From an uncultured bacterium (lineage in GTDB: Bacteria; Patescibacteriota; Minisyncoccia; Phycocordibacterales; GWA1-40-21): 64,000 nt of DNA. The notes under the pieces are model-generated. The model made no database searches and was not told the origin of the DNA. It saw only the letters and a program-made list of their open reading frames with translations. The stretch covers positions 405,015-469,014 of the forward strand of contig CAWDSG010000002.1 in the NCBI GenBank assembly GCA_963804975.1, in the 5' to 3' direction. The first letter of the stretch is position 1; each line of letters starts with the position of its first letter. The position numbers were made by a program, and so were the translations under genes. Below, one piece after another: positions 949 to 45,468 of the stretch.

Positions 949-2868
949 TTACAGCAAAGAATCCAACAATTTTTTTATCGGCACGGTTGCAACACATACG
1001 ACATCATCAGCTCCGCCATAATAAATGAACAGTGTGTCACCTCGCAAAACCGTACCGCATGGAAAAACAACTCCTGATGTTACGCCTACTTTTTCATACG
1101 GCATTTCCGGATCAAAAATCGGAGGGCTTGTTCTAGCAAGCACATTTCTTGGATTTTTCAAATCAAGCAAAGCGAGACCGATGCGATAAGTGTGATGGTT
1201 TGAAGAGACGCCATGATACAAAAGCAGCCAGCCCTTTTTTGTTTTTATCGGAGGAGCGGTGATTCCGACCTTGTCACTGTCCCAATTCCCAGGCCTTGGC
1301 AGCATGATCGGCGTGCCGCGCGTAAGCAAGAGATTGGAAAAATCAAATGAACTGAATTTATCGGCGCAGATATCCGAATTTATCCGATGGAGAATCATAT
1401 AGTCATCCCCCACTTTTTCAGGAAATATGCATGCATCCTTGTCATCCACGCCATATGGCGAAATCAAAAACGGTTTTGTCCAATTCCATAGTTTATTCAA
1501 AAAATCATTCAAATATATGGAGGTAAGCGCCACACGAGGAGGATTTACTCCGTCATACGCCGTATAACACATATAAATTGTGTTCCCAATGAGCGTCAAC
1601 CGAGGATCCTCGCAACCGGAATTTCCGGGACGGTTTTTCATTTCAAACGGCTCTCGCGGAACATATATCGGTTTTTCACTTCTATTTTTGATCGTAAATC
1701 CATCATCACTTTCGGCATACCCGATAGTTGAAGTGCTGTCATTTGACATCGCCCGATAAAGAATACAGGTTGTATTCTCGATTTGAATTGCTGCAGGATT
1801 GAAAACGCCGTTCTTTTCCCAATCATATCCTTTTCTTGACATAAGGATCGGATTTTTGTCATATCTTGTAATAAAGGTATTCAAAGCATCCGGTTTCAAA
1901 GAAAACAGAAGATTATCCAAATTTACCGTTGCTTTGCAGCATACTGTATCAGCAGCGCCATAAAAAATTTCCAGATTATCTTTGTTTAAAAGAGCACCGG
2001 AAGGAAACACGACGTCCGACACTTGTCCGTATTTTTCATAAATTTCAGTCGGCGCAAACATAGGCCCTTTAGTTTTTCCGATAATTTTCTTTGGATTATT
2101 CGGATCCAAAAGCAATGTCTCCACTCCAAAAACCTTCACAAAAGGATTATTTTCCTTGAAATAGTTTTCAATATGTCCGTAAACGAGAAGCCATCCGTCT
2201 TTTGTTTTTACCGGAGGCGCGCCGACTTCAACCTGGTCCGCAGACGATCTGCGCGGATCAATCGTATGAGAATCGATTTCCGAATACCATTTTTTCCAGA
2301 ATTTTTCGCTATACATATCTTCGATTGCATCAAATTCTGCAATGCAGATTTTTGCCGGTGTCGGAGGAATATCCGTGTCAACTGATAAAATCGCAACTAT
2401 TTTACCATTGATTCTTTCCGGAAAAAGCGCCATTGCTTTGGAATTAAACGGTGTGATCAGACGCTTGCTTTCGATTTTTTGAAAATCTTTTGTAGTGGCA
2501 ACCGCAATTTTTATTCCGCTTGCGGAAAATGGATATGTTGAAAGCGCTGTATAAAAGATATAATATTTTCCTTCAAATTTTGTGACTCTTGGATCCTCGC
2601 AGCCATATCTTTCCCAGTCATATTCGGGGAATATCAGTTGCTTTCTGTCATGAAAATCAATGCCGTTTTTACTGTATGCATAGCCGATTGAGGAGATGCT
2701 TATATTTGCCCCATAATAATTTTCGGTTGAAGACATTGCCCTGTAAACATAATGCGTTGTCTCGCCATCTTTCACCGGACACCAGTTAAATACGGCTTTT
2801 TCCTCCCAAGGTTCATTGGTATTCGGATAAAGAATAGGATTATATAAAGATCTTTTTACAATAAACAT
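949..2868 (-). CDS. GH130-family glycoside hydrolase/phosphorylase with two tandem GH130 domains (beta-mannoside phosphorylase-like)
   Basis: Two repeats of the GH130 signature (NPIL..EPWE..VFNWCPV..YRAMS..IGYA and YDKNPILMSRKGYDWEKNGVFNPAAIQIENTTCILYRAMS). 639 aa. Confidence 0.8.
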   Translation of the reverse strand: MFIVKRSLYNPILYPNTNEPWEEKAVFNWCPVKDGETTHYVYRAMSSTENYYGANISISSIGYAYSKNGIDFHDRKQLIFPEYDWERYGCEDPRVTKFEGKYYIFYTALSTYPFSASGIKIAVATTKDFQKIESKRLITPFNSKAMALFPERINGKIVAILSVDTDIPPTPAKICIAEFDAIEDMYSEKFWKKWYSEIDSHTIDPRRSSADQVEVGAPPVKTKDGWLLVYGHIENYFKENNPFVKVFGVETLLLDPNNPKKIIGKTKGPMFAPTEIYEKYGQVSDVVFPSGALLNKDNLEIFYGAADTVCCKATVNLDNLLFSLKPDALNTFITRYDKNPILMSRKGYDWEKNGVFNPAAIQIENTTCILYRAMSNDSTSTIGYAESDDGFTIKNRSEKPIYVPREPFEMKNRPGNSGCEDPRLTLIGNTIYMCYTAYDGVNPPRVALTSIYLNDFLNKLWNWTKPFLISPYGVDDKDACIFPEKVGDDYMILHRINSDICADKFSSFDFSNLLLTRGTPIMLPRPGNWDSDKVGITAPPIKTKKGWLLLYHGVSSNHHTYRIGLALLDLKNPRNVLARTSPPIFDPEMPYEKVGVTSGVVFPCGTVLRGDTLFIYYGGADDVVCVATVPIKKLLDSLL

Positions 2869-4755
2869 TTAAGAAATAATTACTTTATTAATAGTCGGAA
2901 CTACTGCCATATCGTTTTTCAAACTCTCAAGAAGAATATTGAGCGGAACAGTTGCAACACAGACATACTTGTCTCCTCCGCCATAATAAATGAATAATTT
3001 TTCATTTTTTACCACAGCTCCGCAAGCATATACTATTCCCGGTTTCCAATCGTTTTCATACCACATATCGGGAGTAAGGATCGGAATGGACAATCTGGCT
3101 ATAATTTTTGTCGGATCATTCAAATCCAGAAGTATTGCGCCGATTTTGTATCTGCCTATTTCCGCGTCGTGAGCATGATAAAGAACAAGCCAGCCGTCTT
3201 TTGTTTTTACCGGAGCTGGACCGATGCTTCTCATACGGATATGCCATGCTATCTGCTTATTTGGCATAGCTTGAGGATCAGGACTTTCAAAATCAACATT
3301 TTCGGTATTCAAAGAATCAATATTTTCAACATATTCAATTAGAACATGGTCCGCTTCATCGGCGTGAAGATTATGAAGAATCGCGTACTTGCCGTTTATT
3401 TTTTCCGGAAACAAAACCCAGTTTTTGTGCCTTCCGATCGGCGAAATAAATTTCATCTCGCTCCATTTCCACACTTTATTGAGAAAATCCTGAACGGATA
3501 TGGAAATCATTCCGACTCTGATATTATCCCAATTATCAAAAGCATTGAATGTTACATAAATCCTATCATCGATCCTGACCATCCGCTGATCTTCGCATCC
3601 GCCCCAGCTTCCGCCGGAAGGATACATCACAGGATCAAATCTTTTTTCCACCGGCCGCAAGCCGAATTTTGAATATTCCAAAGCAAATACGGGATTCGGA
3701 TATATTTCATCAATATGTATTCCGTCCTTTGTTTTTGCATAGCCGATTCTTGAGATGCCGTCTTTTCCCATCGCCCTGAAAAGCAGATGTATTGTTCCGT
3801 CAATATTAACCGCTGTCGGGTTAAGCGTAGCAGCAGAGCTCCACCAGGATTCCGGTTTTGGCCCGATAATCGGATTATTTTTGTTTTTTTTGATTTTATC
3901 GAACGGTTTTAAAATAGATGGCCGGCTGAAAGGTATAAGCATTGAGGAAGAAATGGTGCCTTCTTTTTGCGAATGCCAATATATGGAAACCGTATCGCCA
4001 AAAAACAAGACGCCGATACATTTAAGATCAGATTCATATTTGATTTTCTTTTCAAAAATAGGGAAATCCGACCTCCAGATGACTTTTTTCGGATCAAGCG
4101 GCGAAATCAGCGCAGCGCCAATCTGCAATTTAATATGCTGATCAGCTCTGACGGAAGCGTCATAAAAAACCAAAATTCCTTTTTCGCAAGGTTTTGATGC
4201 AACGAATTTCAAATTGCCATTGTCAAAAAATCCAGGCCTTGATTTCAATATCGGTTCTTTTGCTTTTCCCCATTTTTTCAAATCTCCCGAAAATGCCAGA
4301 TTAATTGACGATTCCCCGTAATATAAAGCGTATTTGCCGCCGGAAAGCTCGGAAACTATTCCTCCTCTTTCCTTTATAGAAAGGTTATCGCTTATAACAG
4401 ACCATTTATTTACACCTCTTGAAATCGCAATAATAAGTTTTTTTGTCTTACCGGTTTTATAAGTAAAAGCAATGAGTTCTTTTTTCCCTATTTTAGATGA
4501 AACAATACTGTCTATTTTTTCCAATTTTATATTTTTCCCTGTTCCGGAATCAATAGTTATATTCTTCCTGATTTTTGAAAAAACAATGGATGATTTCCCT
4601 TTATTTGAAATTAAGAATATTTTTTTCGGATTTTCTTCAGATCTGCAAAAAATGAAGGATTTTTTATCACTGTTCAAAAAACCTACGGGATAAATCTTTT
4701 CTTCTTTTATGGTTTTTTTAATCATTTTAAAATATAAAAAACACAAAAAATGCAC
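2869..4755 (-). CDS. GH130-family glycoside hydrolase/phosphorylase (paralog)
   Basis: NPIIGPKPESWWSSAATLNPTAVNIDGTIHLLFRAMGKDGISRIGYAKTKDG and GCEDQRMVRIDDRIYVTF motifs typical of GH130. Directly adjacent to the first GH130 gene. Confidence 0.75.
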   Translation of the reverse strand: MHFLCFLYFKMIKKTIKEEKIYPVGFLNSDKKSFIFCRSEENPKKIFLISNKGKSSIVFSKIRKNITIDSGTGKNIKLEKIDSIVSSKIGKKELIAFTYKTGKTKKLIIAISRGVNKWSVISDNLSIKERGGIVSELSGGKYALYYGESSINLAFSGDLKKWGKAKEPILKSRPGFFDNGNLKFVASKPCEKGILVFYDASVRADQHIKLQIGAALISPLDPKKVIWRSDFPIFEKKIKYESDLKCIGVLFFGDTVSIYWHSQKEGTISSSMLIPFSRPSILKPFDKIKKNKNNPIIGPKPESWWSSAATLNPTAVNIDGTIHLLFRAMGKDGISRIGYAKTKDGIHIDEIYPNPVFALEYSKFGLRPVEKRFDPVMYPSGGSWGGCEDQRMVRIDDRIYVTFNAFDNWDNIRVGMISISVQDFLNKVWKWSEMKFISPIGRHKNWVLFPEKINGKYAILHNLHADEADHVLIEYVENIDSLNTENVDFESPDPQAMPNKQIAWHIRMRSIGPAPVKTKDGWLVLYHAHDAEIGRYKIGAILLDLNDPTKIIARLSIPILTPDMWYENDWKPGIVYACGAVVKNEKLFIYYGGGDKYVCVATVPLNILLESLKNDMAVVPTINKVIIS

Positions 4756-4854
4756 TAAGAACTTTAAGCTGTCAATATTATATTATCTTTAAAAATATCT
4801 TGCAATATCAGCATTAATTGGTATTTTAGGATAAAAATATATATAATAAGCAGG

Positions 4855-5610
4855 ATGACAAAAAAAGTAATTGTTTTTGATTTGGATGGGACTCTTGCCG
4901 AAAGCAAACAAAATTTGGACAGTGAAATGTCTGCTCTTCTTTACGATCTTTTATACGTTAAAATGGTCGGAATAGTTTCCGGCGGAGGAATGGCACAATT
5001 TCAAAAGCAAGTTATAGACAAACTGCCGCGAGATAACGAAAGATTGAAAAATCTCATTATTTTCCCGACGAAAGGCGCAATGATGTACAAATTTGACGGA
5101 GAAAAATGGAATAAAGTGTATGAAGAAAAATTAAATCCGACGGACAAGAAAAAAATAATAAGCGCTGTTGAAAAAGCAAAAAAAGAAGTTGATTTCCTGC
5201 CGCAAAAAACTTATGGGGATGCTCTGGAAGACAGAGAAACCGAATTTACTTTTTCTGCTTTGGGGCAAGATGCGCCGCTTGAACTGAAGAGAAATTGGGA
5301 TAAGGACGTAGTAAAACGGCAAAAATTAAAAACATTGATTAAGGATTATTTGCCGGAATTTGAAGTGGAAATAGGAGGAAGCACTTCAATAGATATCACA
5401 AAAAAAGGCATAGATAAGGCCTTTGCAATCAGGCAGATTTGCAAATATGAAAATATTGCAATTGACGAGATATTATTCGTTGGAGACGCTTTATTTATCG
5501 GCGGAAACGACAGCTCAGTCAAGAAAACAGGCGTGGACACTATTGCAGTCAAAGATTATAATGAAACAAAAGAAATTATAAAAAATATAATTGAAGGAAA
5601 AATACAATGA
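4855..5610 (+). CDS. phosphomannomutase, eukaryotic-type (HAD-IIB, PMM family)
   Basis: FDLDGTL DxDxT motif, LYVKMVGIVSGGG, C-terminal FVGDALFIGGNDSSV. Matches PMM (PF03332-like) architecture. TATAAT-like box about 12 nt upstream. Confidence 0.7.
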   Translation: MTKKVIVFDLDGTLAESKQNLDSEMSALLYDLLYVKMVGIVSGGGMAQFQKQVIDKLPRDNERLKNLIIFPTKGAMMYKFDGEKWNKVYEEKLNPTDKKKIISAVEKAKKEVDFLPQKTYGDALEDRETEFTFSALGQDAPLELKRNWDKDVVKRQKLKTLIKDYLPEFEVEIGGSTSIDITKKGIDKAFAIRQICKYENIAIDEILFVGDALFIGGNDSSVKKTGVDTIAVKDYNETKEIIKNIIEGKIQ

Positions 5611-5954
5611 AAATCAAATTAGACATGCGGCCGTGGGGAAAAGAAGAATGGTTCATCGCAAAAGAACCGATACGAATGGTAAAAATTCTTACTTTCAAAC
5701 CGAATCAGGAGTGCAGCTTGCAATATCATTATCACAGAAAGGAATTTTGGAGAATTCTGGAAGGCAGTGCAATAGTAACGATCGGAAAGAAAAAAATCAG
5801 AGCGAAAGTCGGCGACAATTTTGAAATCAAGAAAAAACAGATACATAGGATGCAAGGACTTTCAAAAGGAGCTAAAATCCTGGAAATCCATTTCGGAAAA
5901 TTTGACGAAAACGATATCGTGCGGCTGGAAGACGATTACGGCAGAGTGAAATAA
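5607..5954 (+). CDS. cupin-type mannose-6-phosphate isomerase (type II PMI cupin domain)
   Basis: RPWGKEEWF...KILTFKPNQECSLQYHYHRKEFWRILEGSA...VGDNFEIKKKQIHRM is the classic PMI/GMP cupin signature. ATGA overlap with the phosphomannomutase stop. Confidence 0.65.
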   Translation: MKIKLDMRPWGKEEWFIAKEPIRMVKILTFKPNQECSLQYHYHRKEFWRILEGSAIVTIGKKKIRAKVGDNFEIKKKQIHRMQGLSKGAKILEIHFGKFDENDIVRLEDDYGRVK

Positions 5955-5965
5955 AAAAATAAGCG

Positions 5966-6068
5966 AGCAAAACATTTCGTTTTAAAAAGCCTAGCGAACG
6001 CGTCGGCGCGAGCTCGAGGAATTTTTCAGCAGAAAAATATCCGTGCTTTTTAAACGAAATGTTTTGCT
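5966..6068. repeat. hairpin-embedded element, variant copy 1 (subfamily B): 24-bp IR AGCAAAACATTTCGTTTTAAAAAGC around core CTAGCGAACGCGTCGGCGCGAGCTCGAGGAATTTTTCAGCAGAAAAATATCCGT
   Basis: Between the convergent PMI-cupin and ackA genes. Shares GAACG..CGAGGAAATTTTT with the subfamily A cores. Confidence 0.55.
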
Positions 6069-6074
6069 AGCGAT

Positions 6075-7253
6075 TTATTTAAATTTTCTCACTCGTTCAG
6101 CCATATCGGACATTTCATCCGTACAAACGACAAAAACTTTGACCGGAGAAAAAGCCGAATTTATTTTTTTATCTATACCGACAGTATTGTTATTTACTTT
6201 TTTATTGATTTTTATTCCCAAGGGTTCAAGACCTTTGCAAATCCTTTCCCTTATGACAAATGACCTTTCCCCTATCGTTCCGGAAAATACCAAAGTATCC
6301 AATCCGCCCATTTCCGCCGCATACGAACCGATATATTTCTTGATGCTCAAGATAAATTTCTGCATCGCAAGTTTGGCGTCTTTATCGCCATTCTTTTCAA
6401 GTTCCAAAAGATCCCTGACATCAGAGCTTTTGCCGGAAAGTCCGAGGAGCCCGCACTCGTTGTTAAAATAAGCTTCAAGCTCTGTCGTATTTTTGTTTAA
6501 TTTTTGCCCAAGATACATTACAGCGACAGGATCAATATCGCCCACGCGTGTGGACATTATAAGCCCCTGAAGCGGAGTATAGCCCATAGAAGTATCAAAA
6601 CTTTTTCCATTCTTAACGGCAATCACACTCAAGCCGCCTCCAAGATGACAAATTATCAATTTTTCAGGGAGATTGCCTTTGGCAGACAGTTTATTTACGA
6701 TTGAACCTGCGGAAATGCCGTGATATCCAAAATGAAATATATCCAAATTTTCAGAAACTTTTTTCGGTATAGCATAATATTTAATAAAATCCGGAACATC
6801 TTTATGAAACGCGCTGTCCGAAATTCCCACAATCGGCGTATTTGAAAATATTTTCCTGATTTCGGTTATTTCTTTCAATGTTCCCGGAACATGGCGCGGA
6901 GCTTCTTCTTTTTCGTCCGTTATTTTTGAAATGAATGATTGGTCAACAATTCTATCCGATTGAAAATAAGTTCCCGGAGCCACAACTCTAATTCCAATTG
7001 ATGAAATATCATCTTTGCTTGCAATAATTTTCATATCAGTCGCTTTTTTTATGAAATACTCCAGTGAATCATTAAAGATCTCCGTTGTAATATTTTGTGT
7101 TGCATCTTTCCCTTTTCTGCCGGTATCAAAAAAACTGACAATCGGCTTATTCGCTTCAATTTCAAAATGACCAAAAAATAATTCCTCCTTTTCATTATAG
7201 ATGGAATATTTCGCCGACACGCTCCCCGTATTTACAATTAAGTATTTTTTCAT
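6075..7253 (-). CDS. ackA: acetate kinase
   Basis: MKKYLIVNTGSVSAKYSIY N-terminus and ICHLGGGLSVIAV...MGYTPLQGLIMSTRVGDIDP motifs of the acetate/propionate kinase family. Confidence 0.85.
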   Translation of the reverse strand: MKKYLIVNTGSVSAKYSIYNEKEELFFGHFEIEANKPIVSFFDTGRKGKDATQNITTEIFNDSLEYFIKKATDMKIIASKDDISSIGIRVVAPGTYFQSDRIVDQSFISKITDEKEEAPRHVPGTLKEITEIRKIFSNTPIVGISDSAFHKDVPDFIKYYAIPKKVSENLDIFHFGYHGISAGSIVNKLSAKGNLPEKLIICHLGGGLSVIAVKNGKSFDTSMGYTPLQGLIMSTRVGDIDPVAVMYLGQKLNKNTTELEAYFNNECGLLGLSGKSSDVRDLLELEKNGDKDAKLAMQKFILSIKKYIGSYAAEMGGLDTLVFSGTIGERSFVIRERICKGLEPLGIKINKKVNNNTVGIDKKINSAFSPVKVFVVCTDEMSDMAERVRKFK

Positions 7254-7258
7254 AATGA

Positions 7259-7525
7259 TTATTTCTTATTTGAAATACGCATCTTTTCCCTAAATTCTTG
7301 CTCTTTTTTTATTCTTTCCGCATCTTTATCAATTTCTTCTAATGATTTAATTGCATTTTCTTTGTGTTCTGAACAATAAAATGATCCTTCAATATAACAT
7401 TTAGCTTCAGAAAAACAGCTATCGTTATCGCATTGTGTCAATACATCTTTAACTGGTTCAATTATATAACCTTTTTCGCGAAGTTTTTCCTCCACACTTT
7501 TTTCAATTTTAGGTTCGGTTTCCAT
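7259..7525 (-). CDS. hypothetical small Cys-containing protein (88 aa)
   Basis: ORF track. Sits between xfp and ackA in the same orientation. Confidence 0.4.
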   Translation of the reverse strand: METEPKIEKSVEEKLREKGYIIEPVKDVLTQCDNDSCFSEAKCYIEGSFYCSEHKENAIKSLEEIDKDAERIKKEQEFREKMRISNKK

Positions 7526-7528
7526 ATT

Positions 7529-9928
7529 TTATTTCTTACCTTGCCACTTCCAATTCAAAATCTCTTCCGGATCGTCCCCCACTTTCAAAATATATTCTTT
7601 GTGCTCTTTGATTTTATTTTGATATTTTTCAATCAATTTTTTGGCTTTTTCTTTTTCAATTACTCCATTCTTTGCCATTTTTTCCACCGCTTCGATGAAC
7701 AGATTATATCTGTCCGCTTTATTCCTCATCAGAATATCAAGCGGAGTTGTGGTAGAGCCGCTTTCCATATAGCCATGCACCGAAAACCTGTCCAAGCTGT
7801 TCACATAATAAAACAAAATCTGCTGAAGAGTTTCCGGATATCCGTGAAAATTGAAAATAGCCGGCTTGTCCTTCGTAAAATATTTTTCAAATTCTCCTTC
7901 AGGAAGCTTATTGTAATGGCTGACCGTATTCGGAGAAATTTCCAGGATATTCACGAATCGTACTTTCACTTCAAGGGCTTCCTCTTTCAGTAATTGAACT
8001 GCCGCAAGAGCTTCTTTCACTAAGTACTGTCCGCAGCCGCATAAAACAACATCGGGATTTTCATCAGACGCAAAATCCCATATTGAAATTCCTTTCTCCA
8101 CTTCTTTTTTTGCCTGCTCAACAGTAAGCCATACCGGCTCAACACTCTTTTCGGAAACAATGACATTTATTTCATTTTTTGAAGACAAACATTTTTCGGC
8201 AATCAGAACAGCTTCGTTTTCGTCCGCAGGAAAATATACATTTATAAAATCGTGTTTTTTCAGCAATATATCCGCAATGAATCCGGGATTCTGATGTGAA
8301 AAACCGTTGTGCTCCTGCCGCCAACCGGTTGAAGAAATAATATAATTCAAAGACGGAATATCACCCCGCCATTTTGTCTCTCTCGCAATTTTCATAAATT
8401 TGCTGAATTGATCCGCCATGCTCGCTACGATCATAATAAACGACTCATACGAAGGAAAAACTGCAAACCTGCCCGAGAGCGCGTATCCTTGAGCGAGGCC
8501 TTGCAGGGAATTTTCCGAGAGTATTTCTATAACTCTGCCATCGCGAGCAAGGTCTATGTCCCACTCTTCTATTTTTCCGACAAAAGCACGGGGAGTGGCA
8601 TCAAAAATGTAATGCAGGCGATTTGAATAAGTTTCATCAGGAGAAAACATTCTGAAATTTCTTTTTTCTTTGTTTAATCGAACAACTTCGGCAAAATATT
8701 CGCCAATTTTTTGCATTGCGCCAACTGAGGTTTCGCCCGGAGCTTTTATTTTTGTTTCAAATTTTGAAATATCCGGCAAAATTAAATCCCGCGAATTATC
8801 TCCTTTTTTTATCCCGAATGCATGCTGATTGTCGCCCATTCTCAAACCTTCTTTAGGAATATTTTCTTCAATATCTTTTGAAAAACCGGTTTGTTGATTA
8901 AATAATTCATCAAATTTATAAGATTTCATCCATTTTTCCAGCGCTTTCAGCTCTTTTTTGTCCGTTTTCATTTCCCTGCCGACGATTTGATGAGAAAAAC
9001 AATTCCCCTCTACTTTCGCGTCAAATGCCTTGCCTCGTCCCTCAAGCGCCCAACTATTCAAATATTTGATGCCTGTCCAACCCTTCGGAGTTTTTAAAAC
9101 AATCATCGGGAATCTGTAATAATCTTCTCTCGGTTTGTCAGGATTTTCTCTTGCTTCCTTTTGAATCGCTCTGATGGACGCATAAGCAATGTCCAAAGCT
9201 TTAACCATTTTTTCATAAACTTTATCGTTGTGCCCTTCCACGATTATCGGCTTATATCCGTAACCTTTGAATAAAGATTTCAAATCCGAATTATTCATTC
9301 GGCCGAAAATTGTCGGTCCGGAAATTTTATATCCGTTCAAATGAAGTATCGGCAATACCGCGCCATTTTTTGCCGGGTCAATGAATTTATACAAATGCCA
9401 CGCGGTTGCCGCAGAAGCAGTTTCTGCTTCACCGTCGCCGACAAGACAGGCCACAATAAGGTCTGGATTGTCCAAAACTGCCCCGTAGGAAGTAGAAAGT
9501 GAGTATCCTAGTTCTCCACCCTCCAAGATAACTCCGGGCGTCGCTGGGCTTGAATGGCTTGGAAAACCGTAAGGCCAGCTGAAATTTTTTGTAATATAAG
9601 CAATGCCGTTTTCATCTTTTTTCGCTTCAGGATAATATTTTCCCAAAGTGCCTTCTAGAAAAACATTTGATTGGATTGCTGGAAAGCCATGACCGGGACC
9701 GAGCACGAACATCATATTGGCGCCTGTTTTGTTTATAAGATTATTCAGGCAAGCATATGTAAAATTGATTCCCGGACAAGTACCCCAGTGGCCGAGAAGC
9801 CGCGTTTTTATATCGTCAAAAGTAAGCTTATCATTTAATAAAAAATTGGATTGCAAATATATCTGCCCGACAGAAAGATAATTCGTTGCACGAACATATT
9901 TCTTGATTCGTTCGATTTCGTCTGACAT
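7529..9928 (-). CDS. xfp: xylulose-5-phosphate/fructose-6-phosphate phosphoketolase
   Basis: 799 aa. ATNYLSVGQIYL...LLGHWGTCPGINF N-terminal signature of XFP phosphoketolases. Confidence 0.9.
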   Translation of the reverse strand: MSDEIERIKKYVRATNYLSVGQIYLQSNFLLNDKLTFDDIKTRLLGHWGTCPGINFTYACLNNLINKTGANMMFVLGPGHGFPAIQSNVFLEGTLGKYYPEAKKDENGIAYITKNFSWPYGFPSHSSPATPGVILEGGELGYSLSTSYGAVLDNPDLIVACLVGDGEAETASAATAWHLYKFIDPAKNGAVLPILHLNGYKISGPTIFGRMNNSDLKSLFKGYGYKPIIVEGHNDKVYEKMVKALDIAYASIRAIQKEARENPDKPREDYYRFPMIVLKTPKGWTGIKYLNSWALEGRGKAFDAKVEGNCFSHQIVGREMKTDKKELKALEKWMKSYKFDELFNQQTGFSKDIEENIPKEGLRMGDNQHAFGIKKGDNSRDLILPDISKFETKIKAPGETSVGAMQKIGEYFAEVVRLNKEKRNFRMFSPDETYSNRLHYIFDATPRAFVGKIEEWDIDLARDGRVIEILSENSLQGLAQGYALSGRFAVFPSYESFIMIVASMADQFSKFMKIARETKWRGDIPSLNYIISSTGWRQEHNGFSHQNPGFIADILLKKHDFINVYFPADENEAVLIAEKCLSSKNEINVIVSEKSVEPVWLTVEQAKKEVEKGISIWDFASDENPDVVLCGCGQYLVKEALAAVQLLKEEALEVKVRFVNILEISPNTVSHYNKLPEGEFEKYFTKDKPAIFNFHGYPETLQQILFYYVNSLDRFSVHGYMESGSTTTPLDILMRNKADRYNLFIEAVEKMAKNGVIEKEKAKKLIEKYQNKIKEHKEYILKVGDDPEEILNWKWQGKK

Positions 9929-9939
9929 AGGGAAATTAT

Positions 9940-9970
9940 ATCAAGCTTTTTATAAATAAAAAAGCTTGAT
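9940..9970. promoter_or_regulatory. perfect 12-bp inverted repeat (ATCAAGCTTTTT-N6-AAAAAGCTTGAT) in the divergent xfp/typA promoter region; candidate operator
   Basis: Seen directly. Lies between two divergently transcribed genes, so it is not a terminator. Confidence 0.35.
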
Positions 9971-10029
9971 TTGATTTTAAATAAAAAAAATGTTTTAATA
10001 AGAATAGCGCGAGAGCGCTTTATTTCATT

Positions 10030-11856
10030 ATGGAAATTCGCAATATAGCAATAATCGCACACGTTGACCACGGTAAAACCACCCTCACAGACGCAATTTT
10101 GAGGCAAACGGGCATGGTGGAAGAAGGCGTGAGTATGGACAGCAATAAACTCGAACAAGAGCGCGGTATTACCATTTATGCCAAGAACACCTCCATTTTT
10201 TACAAGGATACAAAAATAAACATCGTTGATACTCCCGGTCACGCGGATTTCGGCTCAGAAGTTGAACGTGTTCTCCGCTCTATTGATACGGTACTTCTTG
10301 TGGTGGATGCGCAAGAAGGCCCGATGCCGCAAACTAGATTTGTCTTGAAAAAATCTCTTGAGCTCGGACTTAAACCGATTGTCGTTATAAATAAAATTGA
10401 CAAATCTGCCGCAAGACCGGAAGAAGCTCACGAAGAAGTGCTTGAACTTTTTATGGAACTTGGCGCAAATGACGAGCAACTGAACTTCCCTACTATTTAC
10501 GCTATCGGCAAAAAAGGCGTTGCGTGGAAAAACCTGCCTACCGGCCAGGCAGGTCTGAAAGATGAACGAAAAGACCTGCCTACCGGCCAGGCAGGTCTAA
10601 CTCCTCTTTTGGATCTGATTCTTGAAAAAATTCCGTCAGCTTCAACGCAGGAAAATCTCGCCGCTCCTTTTACGGCGCAAATTTTTAATCTCGCTTACGA
10701 TAATTTTCTCGGCAGAATGGGAATCGCCAGAATCTATACCGGAAAAGTAAAAGACGGACAGACAGTTTTTGTCAAAGACACAGACGAAAAAAGCAGACAA
10801 GCAAAAATCACAAAACTTTTCACTTTCAAAGGAATTCAAAGAGATGCCGTGCCGGAAGCCGCTGCCGGAGACATTGTTATGATTGCCGGAATTCCCGACG
10901 CTTACATCGGAGAAACTCTTTGCGAAAACACAGACCAAAAAGCTCTGCCTTCCATAAATATAGATGAGCCGACAATTTCTTTGAGTTTTTTGGTCAATGA
11001 TTCCCCGTTTGCAGGAAGAGAAGGAAAATTTGTTACAGGACGACAGATAAGAGAACGACTTGAAAAAGAATTGGAAGTAAATGTCGGGCTCAAAATAGAT
11101 TTTAATACCGATCCGATCACAGTTTACGGCAGAGGCGAACTTCACATCGCAATCTTGATAGAAAATATGCGCCGAGAAGGTTTTGAGCTTCAGGTTTCCC
11201 AACCGCAAGCAATTATTAAAGAAATTGACGGCGTAAGATCCGAACCGTTTGAAGAAGTCATCGTGGACGTGCCATCGGAATTCCAAGGAACGATCATTGA
11301 AAAACTCGGCAAAAGAAAAGGGATTATGAAAGATATGAAAATCAAAGACAACCAGGTCCGCATGGTCTTTGAAATTCCAACAAGAGGACTTCTTGGATAC
11401 AGAGGGGCTTTTATTATGGATACAAAAGGCCTTGGAATCCTTTCATCGCGATTTATCGGCTTCAAGCCATACACCGGAGAAATTCAGAAGCAAGAATTCG
11501 GCTCAATGACCTCAATGATTTCCGGAAAAGCTATGGCTTACTCGCTTTGGAACTTGCAGGAGCGCGGCGTGCTTTATATTGATCCTGCCATAGATATTTA
11601 TGAAGGAATGGTCATCGGACATGTTTTGAACGGCGAAAATCTTGAGGTAAACCCGATAAAAAATAAAAATCTTACGAACGTCCGCGCCTCGGCAAGCGAT
11701 GAAGCGCTTTATCTTGTTCCGCCATTTCGCCTTGATATTGAAAAAGGTTTGGAGATTATGCAAGACGATGAATATCTGGAAATCACTCCGAAATCCGTTC
11801 GTCTCCGAAAAAAGTTTTTGACTAAAAATGATAGATCAAAAGCCGGAAGAAAATAG
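10030..11856 (+). CDS. typA: translational GTPase TypA/BipA
   Basis: [20 protein letters not shown]-domain and overall BipA architecture. Carries a tandem 42-bp GC-rich palindromic insertion encoding [23 protein letters not shown]. Confidence 0.9.
10532..10596 (+). repeat. tandem duplication of GC-rich palindromic element ACCTGCCTACCGGCCAGGCAGGT, in frame inside typA
   Basis: Two copies (10532..10554 and 10574..10596) of a 23-bp near-palindrome, GC-rich against an AT-rich background. Confidence 0.8.
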
Positions 11857-11885
11857 GTTCCGGTTTCTAGGTTTTAGGTTCTAAT

Positions 11886-11922
11886 AAAAAATCATTCTCC
11901 AAACTTGGAGAATGATTTTTTG
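11886..11922. terminator. bidirectional rho-independent terminator hairpin (typA / LysE-family gene)
   Basis: AAAAATCATTCTCCAA-AC-TTGGAGAATGATTTTTT: perfect 12-bp stem with A-run and T-run on either side. Confidence 0.75.
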
Positions 11923-11924
11923 TT

Positions 11925-12524
11925 TTAAAATACGTTTAATAAAGTTTTTATACCTAGTATCATAAGTACAATGGCAAGAATTTTAAAAGTAATGCTTACC
12001 AGATTTTTCTTTTCTAAAACTGGACGGAATTTAAAGAATACAAAAGCCAGCAATGTAGTTGCTAAGAGCCAAGCAATTTCAAATATAAACAGAAAAATGA
12101 ATTTTCCGCCAATAAGAACGCTGTCCAGTATTAAGGCCTTCGGAATTCCCACGGCTATCCAAAAGATCCAATAACCGCTGTTTAGAGCCGTTAAAATTAT
12201 GATCTGATAAAAAGTGAGAATCTGTTTTGATTCGATATTTATTTTTTCTATTTTCCAAACCTTGGAAGCCAGCCAAAAAAGAACGATTGCCCCGCCAATT
12301 GAAATGATCTGTATGGCAATTTTTGACAGACCGATCTTGTAAACAATATAAATGGCCAAAAAAGCGCCGACAGTTTCGGCAATCAGAGCCAAAAAAACAA
12401 TCCTCATTCCCTTTCGGAAACTGCTATTTAAAATCTCAGCAAACGTTCCTGTAAGAATCGGGCCGGGAGTGGCTCCGCCGATCAATCCCAAAAGAAAAGC
12501 TTCAAATAATGAACCTATGACCAT
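11925..12524 (-). CDS. LysE/RhtB-family amino-acid exporter-like membrane protein
   Basis: Multi-TM protein with GPILTGTFAEILNSSFRKG segment resembling LysE translocators. Confidence 0.5.
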   Translation of the reverse strand: MVIGSLFEAFLLGLIGGATPGPILTGTFAEILNSSFRKGMRIVFLALIAETVGAFLAIYIVYKIGLSKIAIQIISIGGAIVLFWLASKVWKIEKINIESKQILTFYQIIILTALNSGYWIFWIAVGIPKALILDSVLIGGKFIFLFIFEIAWLLATTLLAFVFFKFRPVLEKKNLVSITFKILAIVLMILGIKTLLNVF

Positions 12525-12580
12525 GTTCGTATGATATCAATAATTTAACTAACTTTAAACTCCTTATTTATATTGATAAT

Positions 12581-12614
12581 AAAAATCATTCGCCAAGTTT
12601 GGCGAATGATTTTG
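12581..12614. terminator. terminator hairpin, near-identical paralog of the 11886 hairpin
   Basis: AAAAATCATTCGCCAA-GT-TTGGCGAATGATTTTG. Differs from the 11886 copy by compensatory stem changes (TCTCC/GGAGA to TCGCC/GGCGA). Confidence 0.7.
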
Positions 12615-12628
12615 ATGAAGCTCAATAT

Positions 12629-12856
12629 TTATTTTCTTGGATAAACCCTTTTAATGGTACGGCCCATAGCTTCAGCTATTGACTTACCGATATACCGTCG
12701 TCCACGAAGAACATCATTTAGATATTGTGGCGAAATATTTAATTCTTGAGCCGCTTTTTTCTGACCTCCTTTTGATTTTACAAACTCATTAATTTCCTCT
12801 AAAAAATCTTCTTCAGAAAGCGGTTCTTTTTGATTGCTTCCTATTTTATCAGTCAT
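12629..12856 (-). CDS. XRE-like helix-turn-helix DNA-binding protein (75 aa)
   Basis: GGQKKAAQELNISPQYLNDVLRGRRYIGKSIAEAMG fits an HTH_XRE pattern. Solitary, with no toxin partner seen. Confidence 0.5.
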   Translation of the reverse strand: MTDKIGSNQKEPLSEEDFLEEINEFVKSKGGQKKAAQELNISPQYLNDVLRGRRYIGKSIAEAMGRTIKRVYPRK

Positions 12857-12988
12857 GATGACCTCCAGAAAATGTTGAGAAACTAAGTTGTATCTGTAAA
12901 AAATCTTCCGATTATCAGCATAATGTTATTTAATAATTTGTCAAATCTTATTTGTTTTAAATACTAATTTTGATACAATGTATAAGTT

Positions 12989-14083
12989 ATGCCAGAAAAT
13001 ATTAACAGAAACAAAGTTTCCACTGAACCTTACAAAGGCGTGAGGGATTTTTATCCTGAAGATATGGCCGTTCAAAACTATATTTTTGATGTCTGGAAAA
13101 AAACCGCGGAAAGCTTCGGATATCAGGAATACAACGCTTCGGTGCTAGAACCGGCAAGTTTGTATAAAGCAAAATCCGGCGATGAAATCGTAAACGAGCA
13201 AATGTATGTGTTTACCGATAAAGGCGACAGAGAAGTCGCCCTAAGGCCAGAAATGACGCCAACAGTAGCTAGAATGATAGCAGCTAAAAGAAAGGAGCTT
13301 AAATTCCCTATTCGTTGGTACTCAATACCGAATGCATTCAGATATGAAAAACCGCAGCGAGGCAGAACTAGAGAATTTTTTCAATTCAATGCAGATATTT
13401 TCGGCGTTGAAAATATTCAGGCCGATATAGAAATGATTTCTCTCGCCTACCAGATAATGAAAAACTTCGGATTCAAAGACGATCAATTTGAAATTAAAAT
13501 AAATGTTAGCGCCGGCGCAACGAAAAAAGACGCGGAATTCATGATGAAAGAGCTCGCAAAAATCGGCATCAAAAACACAAGCTTTGACGAAGGAATTGTG
13601 CGAGGAATGGAATATTACACAGGCATTGTTTTTGAAATATACGATACGGGAAAAGAAAATCCTCGAGCAATTTTCGGTGGCGGACGATATGACAATCTCC
13701 TTGATATTTTTGATGCGGAAAAGATCCCCGCTGTCGGTTTCGGCATGGGAGATGTCATTATGCGCGATATGCTTGGAACATACGGCCTATTGCCTAAAAT
13801 TGAGGCCCCTGCAAAGCTTTATGTTTGCGTCTTAAACCAAGATTCTATTGCCTATGCGCAAGATTTGGCACAAAAAACTAGAGATTCCGGTGTAAGCACG
13901 ATAGTGGATTATTCCGGAAAGAAAGTTGGAGAACAAATACAATACGCCGATAAAAACAATATTCCGTATGTTGTTATTATTGGAGAAAATGAAATTAAAA
14001 CCGGCAAATTAAAGGTAAAAGAACTTTCCACAGGAAAAGAAACGGAGGTCACGAAAGATACGATAGCTAATGCAATAAAATAA
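12989..14083 (+). CDS. hisS: histidyl-tRNA synthetase (compact form)
   Basis: Class II motifs RPEMTPTVARM, FRYEKPQRGRTREFFQFNADIFG, GGGRYDNL and a C-terminal anticodon-binding domain. 364 aa, lacks the insertion domain. Confidence 0.8.
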   Translation: MPENINRNKVSTEPYKGVRDFYPEDMAVQNYIFDVWKKTAESFGYQEYNASVLEPASLYKAKSGDEIVNEQMYVFTDKGDREVALRPEMTPTVARMIAAKRKELKFPIRWYSIPNAFRYEKPQRGRTREFFQFNADIFGVENIQADIEMISLAYQIMKNFGFKDDQFEIKINVSAGATKKDAEFMMKELAKIGIKNTSFDEGIVRGMEYYTGIVFEIYDTGKENPRAIFGGGRYDNLLDIFDAEKIPAVGFGMGDVIMRDMLGTYGLLPKIEAPAKLYVCVLNQDSIAYAQDLAQKTRDSGVSTIVDYSGKKVGEQIQYADKNNIPYVVIIGENEIKTGKLKVKELSTGKETEVTKDTIANAIK

Positions 14084-14084
14084 A

Positions 14085-14690
14085 ATGCGCAAAATAGTTT
14101 TTGATATTGAAACAAGCAATGATTTCTTGTATGTCGGACTAGGCGATCTATCCAAGCTGGATTTGTCCGTTGTCTGCATTTACGATTACGAAACCGGCAA
14201 ATATTCCAGTTTCACGGAGGGTACACTGAAGGACCTCTGGCCGATTTTAGAAAAAGCGGAATTGCTTATCGGCTACAATAGCGATCATTTTGATATTCCA
14301 ATTTTAAATAAATATTATTCCGGAGACCTTTCAAAAATCAAAAGTTTGGATCTGATGAAAGAAATAAAGAAATCCCTGGGCAGAAGAATTAAGCTTGATA
14401 CTATCGCGGAAGCAACGCTTGGCAGGAATAAAACCGGAAGCGGAATAGATGCGATTAATTGGTGGAAGGCCGGAGAAAAGCAAAAAGTCATTGATTATTG
14501 CATTGAGGATGTGAAAATAACAAAAGAAGTTTACGAATACGCTCTGAAAAACGGCTTTCTCAAATACAAAGACGGACTTGGCCGCCTGCCCGGCCAAGGA
14601 TCAGGCAAAGAAATAAAAGAAATCCCGATTGATACTTCAAAATGGCAAGATATTGATAATTCAAAAATGACTTTCACCTTGCCGTTTTAA
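14085..14690 (+). CDS. DEDD-family 3'-5' exonuclease (DnaQ/RNase D-like)
   Basis: FDIETSN (Exo I), YNSDHFDIPIL (Exo II), YCIEDV (Exo III) motifs. Contains a GC-rich palindrome insertion near the C-terminus (LPGQGSG). Confidence 0.55.
   Translation: MRKIVFDIETSNDFLYVGLGDLSKLDLSVVCIYDYETGKYSSFTEGTLKDLWPILEKAELLIGYNSDHFDIPILNKYYSGDLSKIKSLDLMKEIKKSLGRRIKLDTIAEATLGRNKTGSGIDAINWWKAGEKQKVIDYCIEDVKITKEVYEYALKNGFLKYKDGLGRLPGQGSGKEIKEIPIDTSKWQDIDNSKMTFTLPF
14585..14599 (+). repeat. GC-rich palindromic element copy (CCTGCCCGGCCAAGG), in frame in the exonuclease gene
   Basis: Same motif family as in typA, leuS, rsmH, lysS, greA and priA. Confidence 0.6.
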
Positions 14691-14693
14691 TAA

Positions 14694-14772
14694 CTCACAT
14701 TCGGTAAAAATTTTAGCTCAAAAACTCGCTTCGCTCAAACAGTTCTCGCTGAAAATTTTTACCGAATGTGAG
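14694..14772. repeat. hairpin-embedded conserved-core element, copy 2: 18-bp IR flanking core GCTCAAAAACTCGCTTCGCTCAAACAGTTCTCGC (reverse orientation)
   Basis: Sits exactly between the convergent stop codons of the exonuclease gene and mltG. Core is identical to the 57934 copy. Confidence 0.8.
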
Positions 14773-14773
14773 T

Positions 14774-15763
14774 TTACTTCAAATATTTCGCGATGTTCGT
14801 GTCCTGTTCTTCCAATGTCTTTGCATAATGTATATTTCCTTCGCTGTCGCTCAAAAAGTAGAGATACGGCGTTGCGGTCGGCTCTATCGCATCCTCTATC
14901 GCGGAAAGTCCGGGATTTGAAATCGGGGTTGGCGGCAAGCCGGAATGATTGTAAGAATTGTACAGCGAATCGGATTTCAGATCATGCGTTGTTGTGCTGT
15001 AAAGATAGTCAATATACTTAAATGAAGAATCCACCTGAAGAGCCATCCCGAGCTTGATGCGCTTCCATAAAATGCCCGCGATGATTTTTCTCGATTCGTC
15101 GGTGTTGGCCTCATCTTCAAGTATTGAGGCCATTTTGATGACATCGGATTCCGGTTTGCCGAAGGTTTTGATGCCGCTTTCAGCCATTTTTATTTTTTCA
15201 TCGAAATTGCCTTTCATAATTTTAATTATGTCGTTTTCATCCGTATTCGGCAAAAGAAGATAGGTATCCGGAAAAAGATAACCCTCAAGATTCTGGCTTT
15301 TAATCAGATTTAAAAATATCTGCTTATTGAAAGTCGGGATGTATTTCGCGTAAATATCGGCAATCTGATATGAATTAAGGCCTTCCGGAATCGTTATTTT
15401 CAGCGGCTTGACATCGAAATCGCCGTGAGAAATTCTCCATGCGAGCTCAATTGCATTTTGCCGCGCATACAAAGCGTAATCTCCGGCGATCGTTTTCCGT
15501 TCACCGAATGAAAAAAGATATATGAATGTCTTGAACCAAAACGGAGAACGTATCACCCCCATATTAAGCAGATTATAAGCGGTTTTTGCGTACACTTCTC
15601 CTGATTTCAAATCGTATGCCGAACCGGCCGGAAATGCCGCAGGCGCCGACCAAAAAAAAGCGTTGAACGACACGGCAACAACCGCTAAAAAAAGCAAAAA
15701 AAATTGCTTCGTAAAAAATCTTTTGTATGGCTTGAACCATTCAAGTAAGGCCTGGTATCGCAT
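14774..15763 (-). CDS. mltG: endolytic murein transglycosylase MltG (YceG-like)
   Basis: N-terminal TM; C-terminal GLPPTPISNPGLSAIEDAIEPTATPYLYF signature of the YceG/MltG family. Confidence 0.8.
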   Translation of the reverse strand: MRYQALLEWFKPYKRFFTKQFFLLFLAVVAVSFNAFFWSAPAAFPAGSAYDLKSGEVYAKTAYNLLNMGVIRSPFWFKTFIYLFSFGERKTIAGDYALYARQNAIELAWRISHGDFDVKPLKITIPEGLNSYQIADIYAKYIPTFNKQIFLNLIKSQNLEGYLFPDTYLLLPNTDENDIIKIMKGNFDEKIKMAESGIKTFGKPESDVIKMASILEDEANTDESRKIIAGILWKRIKLGMALQVDSSFKYIDYLYSTTTHDLKSDSLYNSYNHSGLPPTPISNPGLSAIEDAIEPTATPYLYFLSDSEGNIHYAKTLEEQDTNIAKYLK

Positions 15764-15768
15764 AATAA

Positions 15769-17160: not shown

Positions 17161-17197
17161 GAGTTAATTATAACAAAATAAAAAACAAAAAGAAAAT

Positions 17198-17274
17198 CCG
17201 TTCATAATAAATTTTATACGAGAAACTGTCCGAGCGAAGCGGGTTTTTCCGAGAAGAAAATTTATTATGAGCGG
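17198..17274. repeat. hairpin-embedded conserved-core element, copy 3 (core CGAGAAACTGTCCGAGCGAAGCGGGTTTTTCCGAGAAG inside an 18-bp IR)
   Basis: IR CCGTTCATAATAAATTTT / AAAATTTATTATGAGCGG. Lies between two minus-strand genes, downstream of 17279..18313. Confidence 0.7.
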
Positions 17275-17278
17275 ATTT

Positions 17279-21276: not shown

Positions 21277-21408
21277 ATTAAAACATAATATAACAAAAAT
21301 AGTCGGAAATAAAGAGTTCTTTGGCTTGACATAATCCGTCATTTAATTAAGATAGGACCAGAACAGGCAAGTCCGTTCCTTTCCAAAAAAATCTGTCAGG
21401 AGAGAAAA

Positions 21409-24139: not shown

Positions 24140-24215
24140 TGGCCTTATCGTCTAACGGTTAGGACATAGCCTTCTCAAGCGTTAGAATCGGGGTTCGATT
24201 CCCCGTAAGGTCACC
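24140..24215 (+). tRNA. tRNA-Glu(CUC)-like; all arms canonical except a poorly paired anticodon stem (possible pseudo-tRNA or unusual tRNA)
   Basis: Acceptor GGCCTTA/TAAGGTC, D-arm GTCT..GGAC, loop TTCTCAA with U33 and anticodon CTC, T-arm CGGGGTTCGATTCCCCG, encoded CCA. Anticodon stem TAGCC/GCGTT pairs at only 2 of 5 positions. Confidence 0.5.
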
Positions 24216-24239
24216 ATTTCGTGCTAGCACGAGATATAT

Positions 24240-45405: not shown

Positions 45406-45468
45406 AAATTCATTATATCAGATTTTGAAAAGTTGAAAAACCGCCTATTTTCTGTCATTATACAGCTA

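Follow-up and report, generated by a model that had tools for sequence, protein, structure and literature searches.

A conserved array of GH130 modules with differing nucleophile pockets in a possible cytoplasmic beta-1,2-mannoside processing cassette of Patescibacteria

Patescibacteria are ultra-small and carry very few sugar-handling genes, so that a cassette of mannoside genes that recurs among numerous lineages is probably the sign of a carbon source or reserve central to them. Such a cassette lies in the 64,000-nucleotide stretch analysed here (the window: positions 405,015 to 469,014 of contig CAWDSG010000002.1, assembly GCA_963804975.1, from an uncultured bacterium of the Minisyncoccia), where six metabolic genes occupy positions 949-9928: two encoding proteins of glycoside hydrolase family GH130, and one each for a HAD-type hexose-phosphate mutase of the phosphomannomutase (PMM) family, a phosphomannose isomerase (PMI), a phosphoketolase (Xfp) and an acetate kinase (AckA). 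A preliminary description of these genes had read them as one compact module that carries beta-mannosides through to acetate with a gain of ATP. Do the six genes form such a module, which mannoside would they act on, and what does each of the GH130 domains do?

All six genes were confirmed at these positions with strong Pfam and NCBIfam family matches, and the G+C content of 949-9928 is like that of the remaining window; on both grounds we consider them real genes. The preliminary description was right about gene content and enzyme families, and the chain that it proposed (beta-mannoside to mannose-1-phosphate, mannose-6-phosphate, fructose-6-phosphate, acetyl-phosphate and finally acetate plus ATP) is biochemically possible with these genes; as a whole, its observations were partly confirmed and its interpretation was partly supported. 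The reading that we favour, and to which we assign an even chance, is that of a cytoplasmic beta-1,2-mannoside processing cassette, serving the breakdown of beta-1,2-manno-oligosaccharides, typical of Paceibacteria-type Patescibacteria and lying beside a genetically separate Xfp-AckA operon. A mannoside-to-acetate route would then be feasible, without being the task of a dedicated module. As a pathway the locus is ordinary, and its interest lies in the conserved array of three GH130 pockets that it holds in minimal bacteria.

The two GH130 genes stand in tandem on the reverse strand: an upstream gene (2869-4725; 618 amino acids (aa); Pfam GH130 score 152 bits) and a downstream gene (949-2868; 639 aa; 305 bits), against a Pfam cut-off of 26 bits for PF04041. 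The upstream open reading frame (ORF) extends over 2869-4755, of its two candidate starts the ATG at 4725 being more probable than the GTG at 4755. Its stop codon (2871-2869) directly abuts the ATG of the downstream gene at 2868, in the same frame. Each gene has two matched stretches, and each half, when searched alone, again gave a GH130 match, which defines four modules: A (3931-4725; aa 1-265 of the upstream gene), B (2869-3930; aa 266-618 plus the stop), C (1885-2868; aa 1-328 of the downstream gene) and D (949-1884; aa 329-639 plus the stop). The two fused domains noticed earlier in the first gene are thus confirmed, but the second gene is double as well, its first 265 aa being a degenerate GH130 domain. 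The best-matching NCBIfam model is in all four cases NF052550 (beta-1,2-mannobiose phosphorylase), with scores of 232 (D), 176 (C), 175 (B) and 48 bits (A), none of which reaches the equivalog cut-off of 450 bits. Module A, which scores 30.8 bits with the Pfam family and matches the later part of NF052550 only (9e-13), is nevertheless well folded in the AlphaFold model of the upstream protein (all-beta, with a mean predicted local distance difference test score (pLDDT) of 86.9), its own part having a pLDDT of about 90 and about 21 strands. The top PDB structural match of the upstream protein and module B model is Teth514_1788 (template modelling score 0.81), which, together with the profile matches in the four modules, places both proteins in GH130.

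The closest protein relatives of the cassette are 55-79% identical and carry the labels Paceibacterota, Nomurabacteria, Minisyncoccia, Moraniibacteriota and Levyibacteriota. In most relatives the GH130 gene pair is abutting or nearly so (a few have a gap of up to ~200 bp), and in four cases (P0031, P0033, P0036 and P0039) modules B, C and D follow each other, in the same order, within single polypeptides of 971-1110 aa. Module A is absent or short in some lineages, where the upstream gene encodes 408-478 aa. The conserved unit is therefore B-C-D, and the abutting genes and single polypeptides argue that its modules act together. In CAZy, GH130-GH130 fusions are rare and uncharacterised.

For the active sites, positions were mapped by HMMER alignments to Uhgb_MS and Teth514_1788, complemented by a MAFFT alignment, and conservation was checked in a table of 12 lineages and in orthologues, 56 for the downstream gene and 46 for the upstream one. 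The residues of the sugar site are common to modules B, C and D (the Asn of FNP, the Arg of YRA, the Glu-Asp motif, the Lys of subsite +1 and the Asp of YYGGxD), with subsites -1 and +1 intact in B and the sugar subsites intact in C. The linkage cleaved by GH130 enzymes is marked by a residue pair, Glu/Lys for beta-1,2 and Tyr/Arg for beta-1,4 (PMC7660257, PMC4599007, PMC12814180), and here the Glu/Lys pair is invariant in all three modules (B: E378/K434; C: E91/K144; D: E420/K477). Taken with the best solved relatives of the modules, which are Teth514_1788 and Teth514_1789 of Thermoanaerobacter (29-38% identity), this pair leads us to predict that the catalytic modules act specifically on beta-1,2-mannosides. 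A beta-1,4-mannan substrate was also considered and rejected: no catalytic module has Tyr/Arg in place of Glu/Lys, and the beta-1,4 enzymes Uhgb_MP, RaMP2 and BfMGP are the weakest of the PDB matches. The GH130 genes are thus of mannoside type, as had been supposed, but with the signature of beta-1,2 linkages and not that of plant-type beta-1,4-mannan.

The three modules differ in the pocket that holds the nucleophile. Activity in this family is judged by a catalytic Asp and by an Arg/His pair that binds phosphate, with a further basic residue, and in the hydrolases of the family carboxylates replace these basic residues (PMC7660257, PMC4599007, PMC12814180). A phosphorylase, in the terms of Li et al. 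2020 (PMC7660257), has the catalytic Asp, no catalytic base, the Arg/His pair (whose Arg is R168 in Uhgb_MP and R202 in Uhgb_MS) and no signal peptide. Only module D shows all of these features: it has no hydrophobic N-terminus, its residues E420, D421, K477, H494, R495 and H552 are invariant in the 56 orthologues and 12 lineages (with Lys or Arg at K533), and it matches the PDB entries 7FIP and 9FJ8 best (E ~1e-52), all in keeping with a canonical beta-1,2-mannoside phosphorylase signature. Modules B and C both lack the Arg, and the Arg/His pair is found in D alone of the four modules, so that the earlier count of two GH130 phosphorylases was overstated.

In module C the pocket has been rebuilt in a consistent way. 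The position of the phosphate Arg (162) is Ser or Thr in 53 of the 56 orthologues, Ala or Asn in the others, and never Arg; the second basic residue (Arg/Lys) has become His/Gln212, and the Gly that is invariant in phosphorylases has given way to a Glu (Glu214) that is as invariant as Asp166, while Asp211 hardly varies. All 12 lineages in the table, even Levyibacteria with 50% identity, carry this signature with Ser/Thr at 162. A change of this kind is known from the Bacteroides GH130_3 beta-1,2-mannosidases BT3780 and BACOVA_03624, in which carboxylates stand for the basic phosphate residues while the sugar residues and the beta-1,2 Lys are kept. Judged by these residues, module C looks hydrolase-like and would most likely be a beta-1,2-mannosidase that uses water. 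In contrast to the GH130_3 enzymes, which are mostly secreted, it is cytoplasmic, without signal peptide, fused to a phosphorylase and nearer to the phosphorylase model, scoring 94.7 bits on the BT3780 mannosidase model NF058598 (cut-off 550) versus 176 on NF052550; the five best PDB alignments are all to phosphorylases, BT3780 (5A7V) not being among them. Module C may define an uncharacterised cytoplasmic GH130 activity.

Module B keeps E378-D379, K434 and H451 invariant, and at least 90% of its 46 orthologues retain R499 and H517; the module's position 452, that of the phosphate Arg, is Asn in the window and Ser, Asn or Gly, never Arg, among these orthologues. In the distant lineages L010 and L011 the Arg is retained (as 'FHR'). 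We regard module B as probably a weak phosphorylase or a variant of other specificity, to go by its pocket, and module A, which lacks the Glu-Asp catalytic motif, as probably a non-catalytic propeller. The importance of the lost Arg is known from mutants and relatives: in Uhgb_MS its replacement by Ala lowers phosphorylase activity 16-fold, and in GT108 a His at the equivalent position abolishes it. Based on the pocket residues and on these effects, the array would consist of one clear phosphorylase (D), a hydrolase-like module (C), a module without the Arg (B) and a non-catalytic one (A). Three versions of one active site thus stand in a fixed order on abutting or fused polypeptides, one with a pocket for phosphate, one with carboxylates in the pocket and one without the Arg. 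How enzymes of this family change from phosphorolysis to hydrolysis, and perhaps to transfer, is under active study (PMC12814180, PMC10913872), and the array can be seen as nature's own experiment on it.

Such a pattern could also arise if D were the sole phosphorylase and A, B and C were dead copies kept for oligomer contacts. GH130 enzymes are indeed oligomeric (dimers to hexamers when free-standing), with loops of a neighbouring subunit lining the active site, and module A has no catalytic motif. In a close relative (75% identical; L008, OY970290.1, ~9545-12285) a deletion of ~1.1 kb truncates B and C, leaving products of 479 aa (P0139) and 458 aa (P0062) with module D intact; this deletion is a case of ongoing decay of the cassette. 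Nevertheless, the catalytic Asp, the adjoining Glu, the +1 Lys and the other sugar residues of B and C are invariant down to 35-50% identity, and in C the replaced pocket residues are themselves invariant. Conservation of this kind across distant lineages is what working active sites in B and C would be expected to show, and we consider the scaffold explanation quite improbable.

The remaining cassette genes face the GH130 pair across a divergent intergenic region of 129 bp (4726-4854) and are read on the forward strand. The first (4855-5610, 251 aa) encodes a HAD-IIB hexose-phosphate mutase of the PMM/alpha-phosphoglucomutase family, with a TIGR01484 score of 79 bits (cut-off 41.8), a PF03332 score of 42.7 (cut-off 22.4), the nucleophile motif DLDGT and a GGND motif. 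Its nearest solved relative is 4BND, the alpha-phosphoglucomutase (PgmH) of Lactococcus lactis (E 3e-42, 36.6% identity), and the eukaryotic PMMs follow at E values of ~1e-13 to 1e-9. The label of eukaryote-type PMM given to it before therefore stands as regards the mutase family and falls as regards its closest solved relative. All three (PgmH, the eukaryotic PMM1/PMM2 and the protein of the window) are HAD-IIB enzymes with DxDxT and GGND motifs. That the protein could be a phosphatase was also considered, and rejected, since all significant PDB matches are to mutases of the PMM/alpha-phosphoglucomutase family.

The second gene (5607-5954, forward strand, 115 aa) is a stand-alone PMI cupin (PF01050 68.6 bits, cut-off 23.6), whose start codon overlaps the stop of the mutase gene in an ATGA. 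It carries the motifs RPWG, QYHYHRKEFW and IHR, and we take RPWG and QxHxHRxExW (with IHR) to be typical of type-II PMIs, to which its profile also assigns it. The mutase gene shows translational coupling with PMI and lies beside GH130 genes, in which it differs from the PgmH case; it is from this context that we infer the interconversion of mannose-1-phosphate and mannose-6-phosphate by the mutase.

The proteins of all six genes lack an N-terminal hydrophobic segment, which points to a location in the cytoplasm. Their genes form three transcription units on two strands: the GH130 pair (reverse), PMM-PMI divergent from it (forward), and xfp-orf88-ackA convergent with the latter (reverse). Within the divergent region there is one promoter-like site in each direction, TTGGTA-18-TATAAT at 4818-4847 (forward) and TTGCAA-17-TATAAT at 4805-4777 (reverse), both being consensus matches only, at 10 of 12 positions each. 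Xfp (7529-9928, reverse, 799 aa), a xylulose-5-phosphate/fructose-6-phosphate phosphoketolase, passes its NCBIfam model (NF003616, 868.8 bits; cut-off 777) and has the domains XFP_N, XFP and XFP_C at 449, 227 and 209 bits; AckA (6075-7253, reverse, 392 aa) likewise passes TIGR00016 (317.1 bits; cut-off 293.4), with 311 bits for PF00871. The pair resembles the Xfp and AckA of the bifidobacterial shunt ('bifid shunt'), with all three XFP domains present and an acetate kinase in the same operon, and its phosphoketolase may prefer either fructose-6-phosphate or xylulose-5-phosphate. A difference from the bifid shunt lies in the transketolase and transaldolase, which the preliminary description had proposed to look for: a Pfam scan of 48 ORFs found neither in the 64-kb window.

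Whether these units belong together can be judged from their neighbourhoods in related genomes. Loci were collected via the downstream GH130 protein (11 loci, then nine more with its relatives) and via relatives of Xfp (five). Distinct cassette loci with a readable upstream flank number 14; L014, L015 and L017 are duplicates of L013 and L016, and L005, L009, L010 and L012 are cut too close. PMI and the two GH130 genes are together in 13 of the 14, the exception being L011 (Levyibacteria), which has the GH130 pair only. PMM also adjoins in 11 of these loci, mostly closer relatives plus L020. Among the related loci it does so in L002-L004, L006-L008, L016 and L018-L020, and in L020 CTP_transf_like, PMM, PMI, GH130, GH130 and iPGM genes follow on one strand. 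The core of the cassette is thus PMI with the two GH130 genes, and a single six-gene module is not what was found.

The pair of xfp and ackA behaves independently of this core. It adjoins the cassette only in relatives that are ~70-75% identical, in the orders TypA, Xfp, AckA, cassette (the window and L008), HisRS, TypA, Xfp, AckA, cassette (L016/L017) and Pif1 helicase, Xfp, AckA, cassette (L002-L004). The cassette occurs without it in L006/L007 (where a P-type ATPase stands in the place that Xfp-AckA would take), L011, L013, L018, L019, L020 and L021. Conversely, in four of the five loci reached via Xfp (L022 and L024-L026) the pair stands without the GH130 genes. In L024-L026 it comes at the end of a backbone of sigma/HARE-HTH, DUF8128, YceG, RNase H-like, HisRS and TypA genes, with no GH130, PMM or PMI genes downstream. 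L022 has no cassette genes, and in L023 AckA is followed only by a PMI cupin (12963-13307), without GH130 or PMM genes, which is likely a remnant of the cassette. The window has the same backbone genes at 10030-18313 as L024-L026, and a comparison of L016 with L025 shows the cassette, together with a ClpP gene, present in one and absent from the other in the stretch from AckA to a peptidase S24 gene; on this comparison, the mannoside genes are an insert that comes and goes next to an Xfp-AckA pair that stays in place.

We therefore consider it likely that the adjacency of Xfp-AckA to the cassette is incidental, and the convergent, separately transcribed units fit this explanation. The six-gene block is retained, however, whether its outer flank is TypA (as in the window, L008 and L016) or the Pif1 helicase (L002-L004), so that in the latter it has survived a change of the far flank; additionally, fructose-6-phosphate is a genuine Xfp substrate, which gives a metabolic connection whatever the gene order. 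The question is a separate one, since an incidental adjacency is compatible with breakdown, reserve, salvage or scaffold explanations of the cassette, and these are alternatives to each other.

In the breakdown reading, module D, with its full phosphate site, would convert (Man)n and phosphate into mannose-1-phosphate and (Man)n-1, module C would hydrolyse with water what D leaves unfinished, and module B would contribute a variant specificity or weak phosphorolysis. The mutase and PMI, encoded divergently and coupled in translation, would then take mannose-1-phosphate through mannose-6-phosphate to fructose-6-phosphate, and the neighbouring Xfp and AckA could turn fructose-6-phosphate into acetyl-phosphate and then acetate with ATP. 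In the characterised enzymes nearest to the modules, the 1,2-beta-oligomannan phosphorylase Teth514_1788 and the beta-1,2-mannobiose phosphorylase Teth514_1789 (Thermoanaerobacter sp. X-514, GH130_6), the Glu/Lys signature, the tandem genes and the cytoplasmic location without signal peptides are the same; these are two single-module, true phosphorylases, whereas here there are four fused modules, of which one is canonical, and the partners are PMM and PMI. What the data establish are the families, the modular architecture and the conservation of residues and neighbourhoods; the substrate, the direction of flux, the activities of B and C, the preference of the mutase for mannose and any coupling to Xfp are deduced.

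Several observations weigh against breakdown as the function of the cassette. Such organisms are not known to have a supply of beta-1,2-mannan in nature. No importer, mannokinase or regulator was linked to the cassette in any locus examined, while the Thermoanaerobacter cluster has an ABC importer, a GH5 enzyme, ManC and a GT4 enzyme. By its alignments the mutase appears closest to an alpha-phosphoglucomutase, and the Lactococcus enzyme is reportedly glucose-specific and inactive on mannose phosphates. The scores of all four GH130 modules lie far under the NCBIfam equivalog cut-offs, and Glu214 and Asp166 of module C are at most putative counterparts of the catalytic glutamates of BT3780 (Glu227 and Glu268). 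Finally, Xfp-AckA and the cassette each occur without the other, as described above. An annotation as a "mannan to acetate module" should not be propagated: the predicted substrates are beta-1,2-linked, the mutase is presumed from its context to act on mannose phosphates, and Xfp-AckA is independent. The solute-binding protein at 62683-63984, suggested before as a candidate importer, does have an N-terminal hydrophobic segment; that role was not supported, the gene lying 53 kb away with no evidence to link it, with housekeeping genes as the annotated ORFs in between and small ORFs, one of them pilin-like, but no permeases as neighbours. The Pfam scan of ORFs found no sugar permease in the window, and all window ORFs with a Pfam match outside the cassette and Xfp-AckA are housekeeping genes (among them aminoacyl-tRNA synthetases, mur/mre/PBP cell-wall genes, topoisomerase I, RelA, MurJ and ParB).

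An internal location of all modules and the lack of a linked importer in any lineage would also suit a reserve cycle like that of Leishmania mannogen, in which a cytoplasmic beta-1,2-mannan is made from fructose-6-phosphate via PMI and the mutase, with B and/or C polymerising from a nucleotide-mannose, or D running in reverse, and with D (phosphate) and C (water) remobilising it. The reversible PMI and PMM are the sole conserved partners of the array, and its three active sites combine one sugar site with three different nucleophile pockets. The Leishmania GT108 proteins (MTP1-7), which we liken to the array by their description, share the five-bladed propeller, the mechanism, the beta-1,2-mannan substrate, the arrangement as a gene array and the cytoplasmic location; as in B and C, where the Arg is lost, these paralogues vary at the phosphate Arg, and those with His in its place are strict GDP-mannose transferases. 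According to the literature, some GDP-mannose transferase activity is present in all beta-1,2 GH130 phosphorylases tested. GT108 is, however, a CAZy family distinct from GH130, its activity is not set by the Arg/His position alone, and transferase activity in GH130 is possibly without physiological role, in the opinion of the authors of PMC12814180.

The supply of a nucleotide-mannose is a further difficulty. No GDP-mannose pyrophosphorylase was found near the cassette in any locus examined, nor is a gene for GDP-mannose supply linked to it here. In L013 and L020 an RfaE-domain-II-like sugar-1-phosphate nucleotidyltransferase adjoins the cassette (78-79 bits, under a cut-off of 181), accompanied in L013 by a flanking aldose 1-epimerase and an MsbA/ChvA-like ABC exporter (coordinates L013 6992-7492 and 12013-13794; L020 7135-7611). 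The RfaE-II-like gene and the exporter may be signs of a donor of nucleotide-mannose or of an export route; neither an RfaE-II-like nor an aldose epimerase gene was found in the window or in the related loci compared, other than L013-L015 and L020. Beta-1,2-mannan has, moreover, not been reported in these bacteria, and we hold a reserve cycle to be unlikely. Rather improbable is the strong form, in which Paceibacteria-type Patescibacteria hold an intracellular beta-1,2-mannan reserve and B-C-D is a synthase, hydrolase and phosphorylase machine joined to fructose-6-phosphate only by PMI and the HAD mutase; if true, bacteria believed to be nearly devoid of storage metabolism would have an equivalent of the mannogen cycle of Leishmania.

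The direct product of module D, mannose-1-phosphate, could instead be salvaged for glycoconjugates, by way of nucleotide-mannose and mannosylation of the envelope, with PMI and PMM merely balancing the pool. The cluster that holds Teth514_1788 and Teth514_1789, the closest characterised enzymes, has been interpreted in this way. A guanylyltransferase or mannosyltransferase was, on the other hand, not found in or near the cassette in the sampled loci, and the linkage to PMI suggests exchange with fructose-6-phosphate, all of which makes salvage highly improbable.

Compared with what is known, the folds and the chemistry of the cassette are familiar, and the arrangement is an undescribed, widely conserved multi-module one that probably includes one new activity. 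Two GH130 enzymes without signal peptides have been noted in a Microgenomates genome (PMC7143001). In the literature on GH130 together with Patescibacteria, Candidate Phyla Radiation (CPR) or Parcubacteria, this was the one relevant statement that we found, and neither the B-C-D array nor its linkage to PMI and PMM was described.

The junction between the convergent PMI and ackA genes contains an imperfect inverted repeat of 44 nt around a 59-nt core that is richer in G+C (5944-6090); its arm occurs nowhere else in the window. The repeat coincides with the junction at which relatives have or lack the mannoside cassette, and it may be a bidirectional terminator or a junction of the cassette. 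On the other side of ackA, the six genes turn out not to be strictly consecutive, as orf88 (7259-7525, reverse, 88 aa) intervenes between xfp and ackA. It is Cys-rich (C-x4-C ... C-x7-C-x2-H), starts 3 nt past the stop of xfp and ends 5 nt ahead of the start of ackA; it had no Pfam or NCBIfam match and no tblastn match in L001-L012, and no counterpart was seen between Xfp and AckA of the relatives. At the other end of the locus, orf201 (340-945) is without a family match and without a conserved counterpart in relatives. In L011 (labelled Levyibacteriota), genes for cytochrome oxidase subunits II and I (11982-14828; COX1 457 bits) follow directly downstream of the GH130 pair; one would not expect them in a CPR genome, and mis-binning may be the cause.

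Some minor observations concern the other genes of the window. A 21-nt palindrome, CCTGCCTACCGGCCAGGCAGG, occurs twice in frame in typA (10533-10553 and 10575-10595), each time adding the residues LPTGQAG, and TypA of four relatives lacks exactly these two 7-residue inserts. A third, diverged copy (46605-46625) adds LPSRQAG within a zinc-ribbon stretch of a PriA-like gene (45433-47400). These three sites compare with 0.01 expected, there is no exact copy in 26 related loci, and the palindrome looks like a tiny in-frame palindromic insertion element. The leucyl-tRNA synthetase (18409-21342, reverse, 977 aa) has a NUDIX domain (aa 437-532, 48.9 bits) after its editing domain, and its counterpart in L024 (806 aa) has no NUDIX domain listed. 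A tRNA gene at 24141-24216 (forward, Rfam 45 bits), which ARAGORN could not assign, has an 8-nt anticodon loop, UUCUCAAG, on a stem that ends in a C-C mismatch; this tRNA probably resembles Glu(CUC), its loop having one additional base. Finally, the window holds two MreB paralogues on the reverse strand (35594-36685 and 42064-43077) with identical Pfam scores of 440.5 bits, one within an mreC/PBP cluster and the other 6 kb off.

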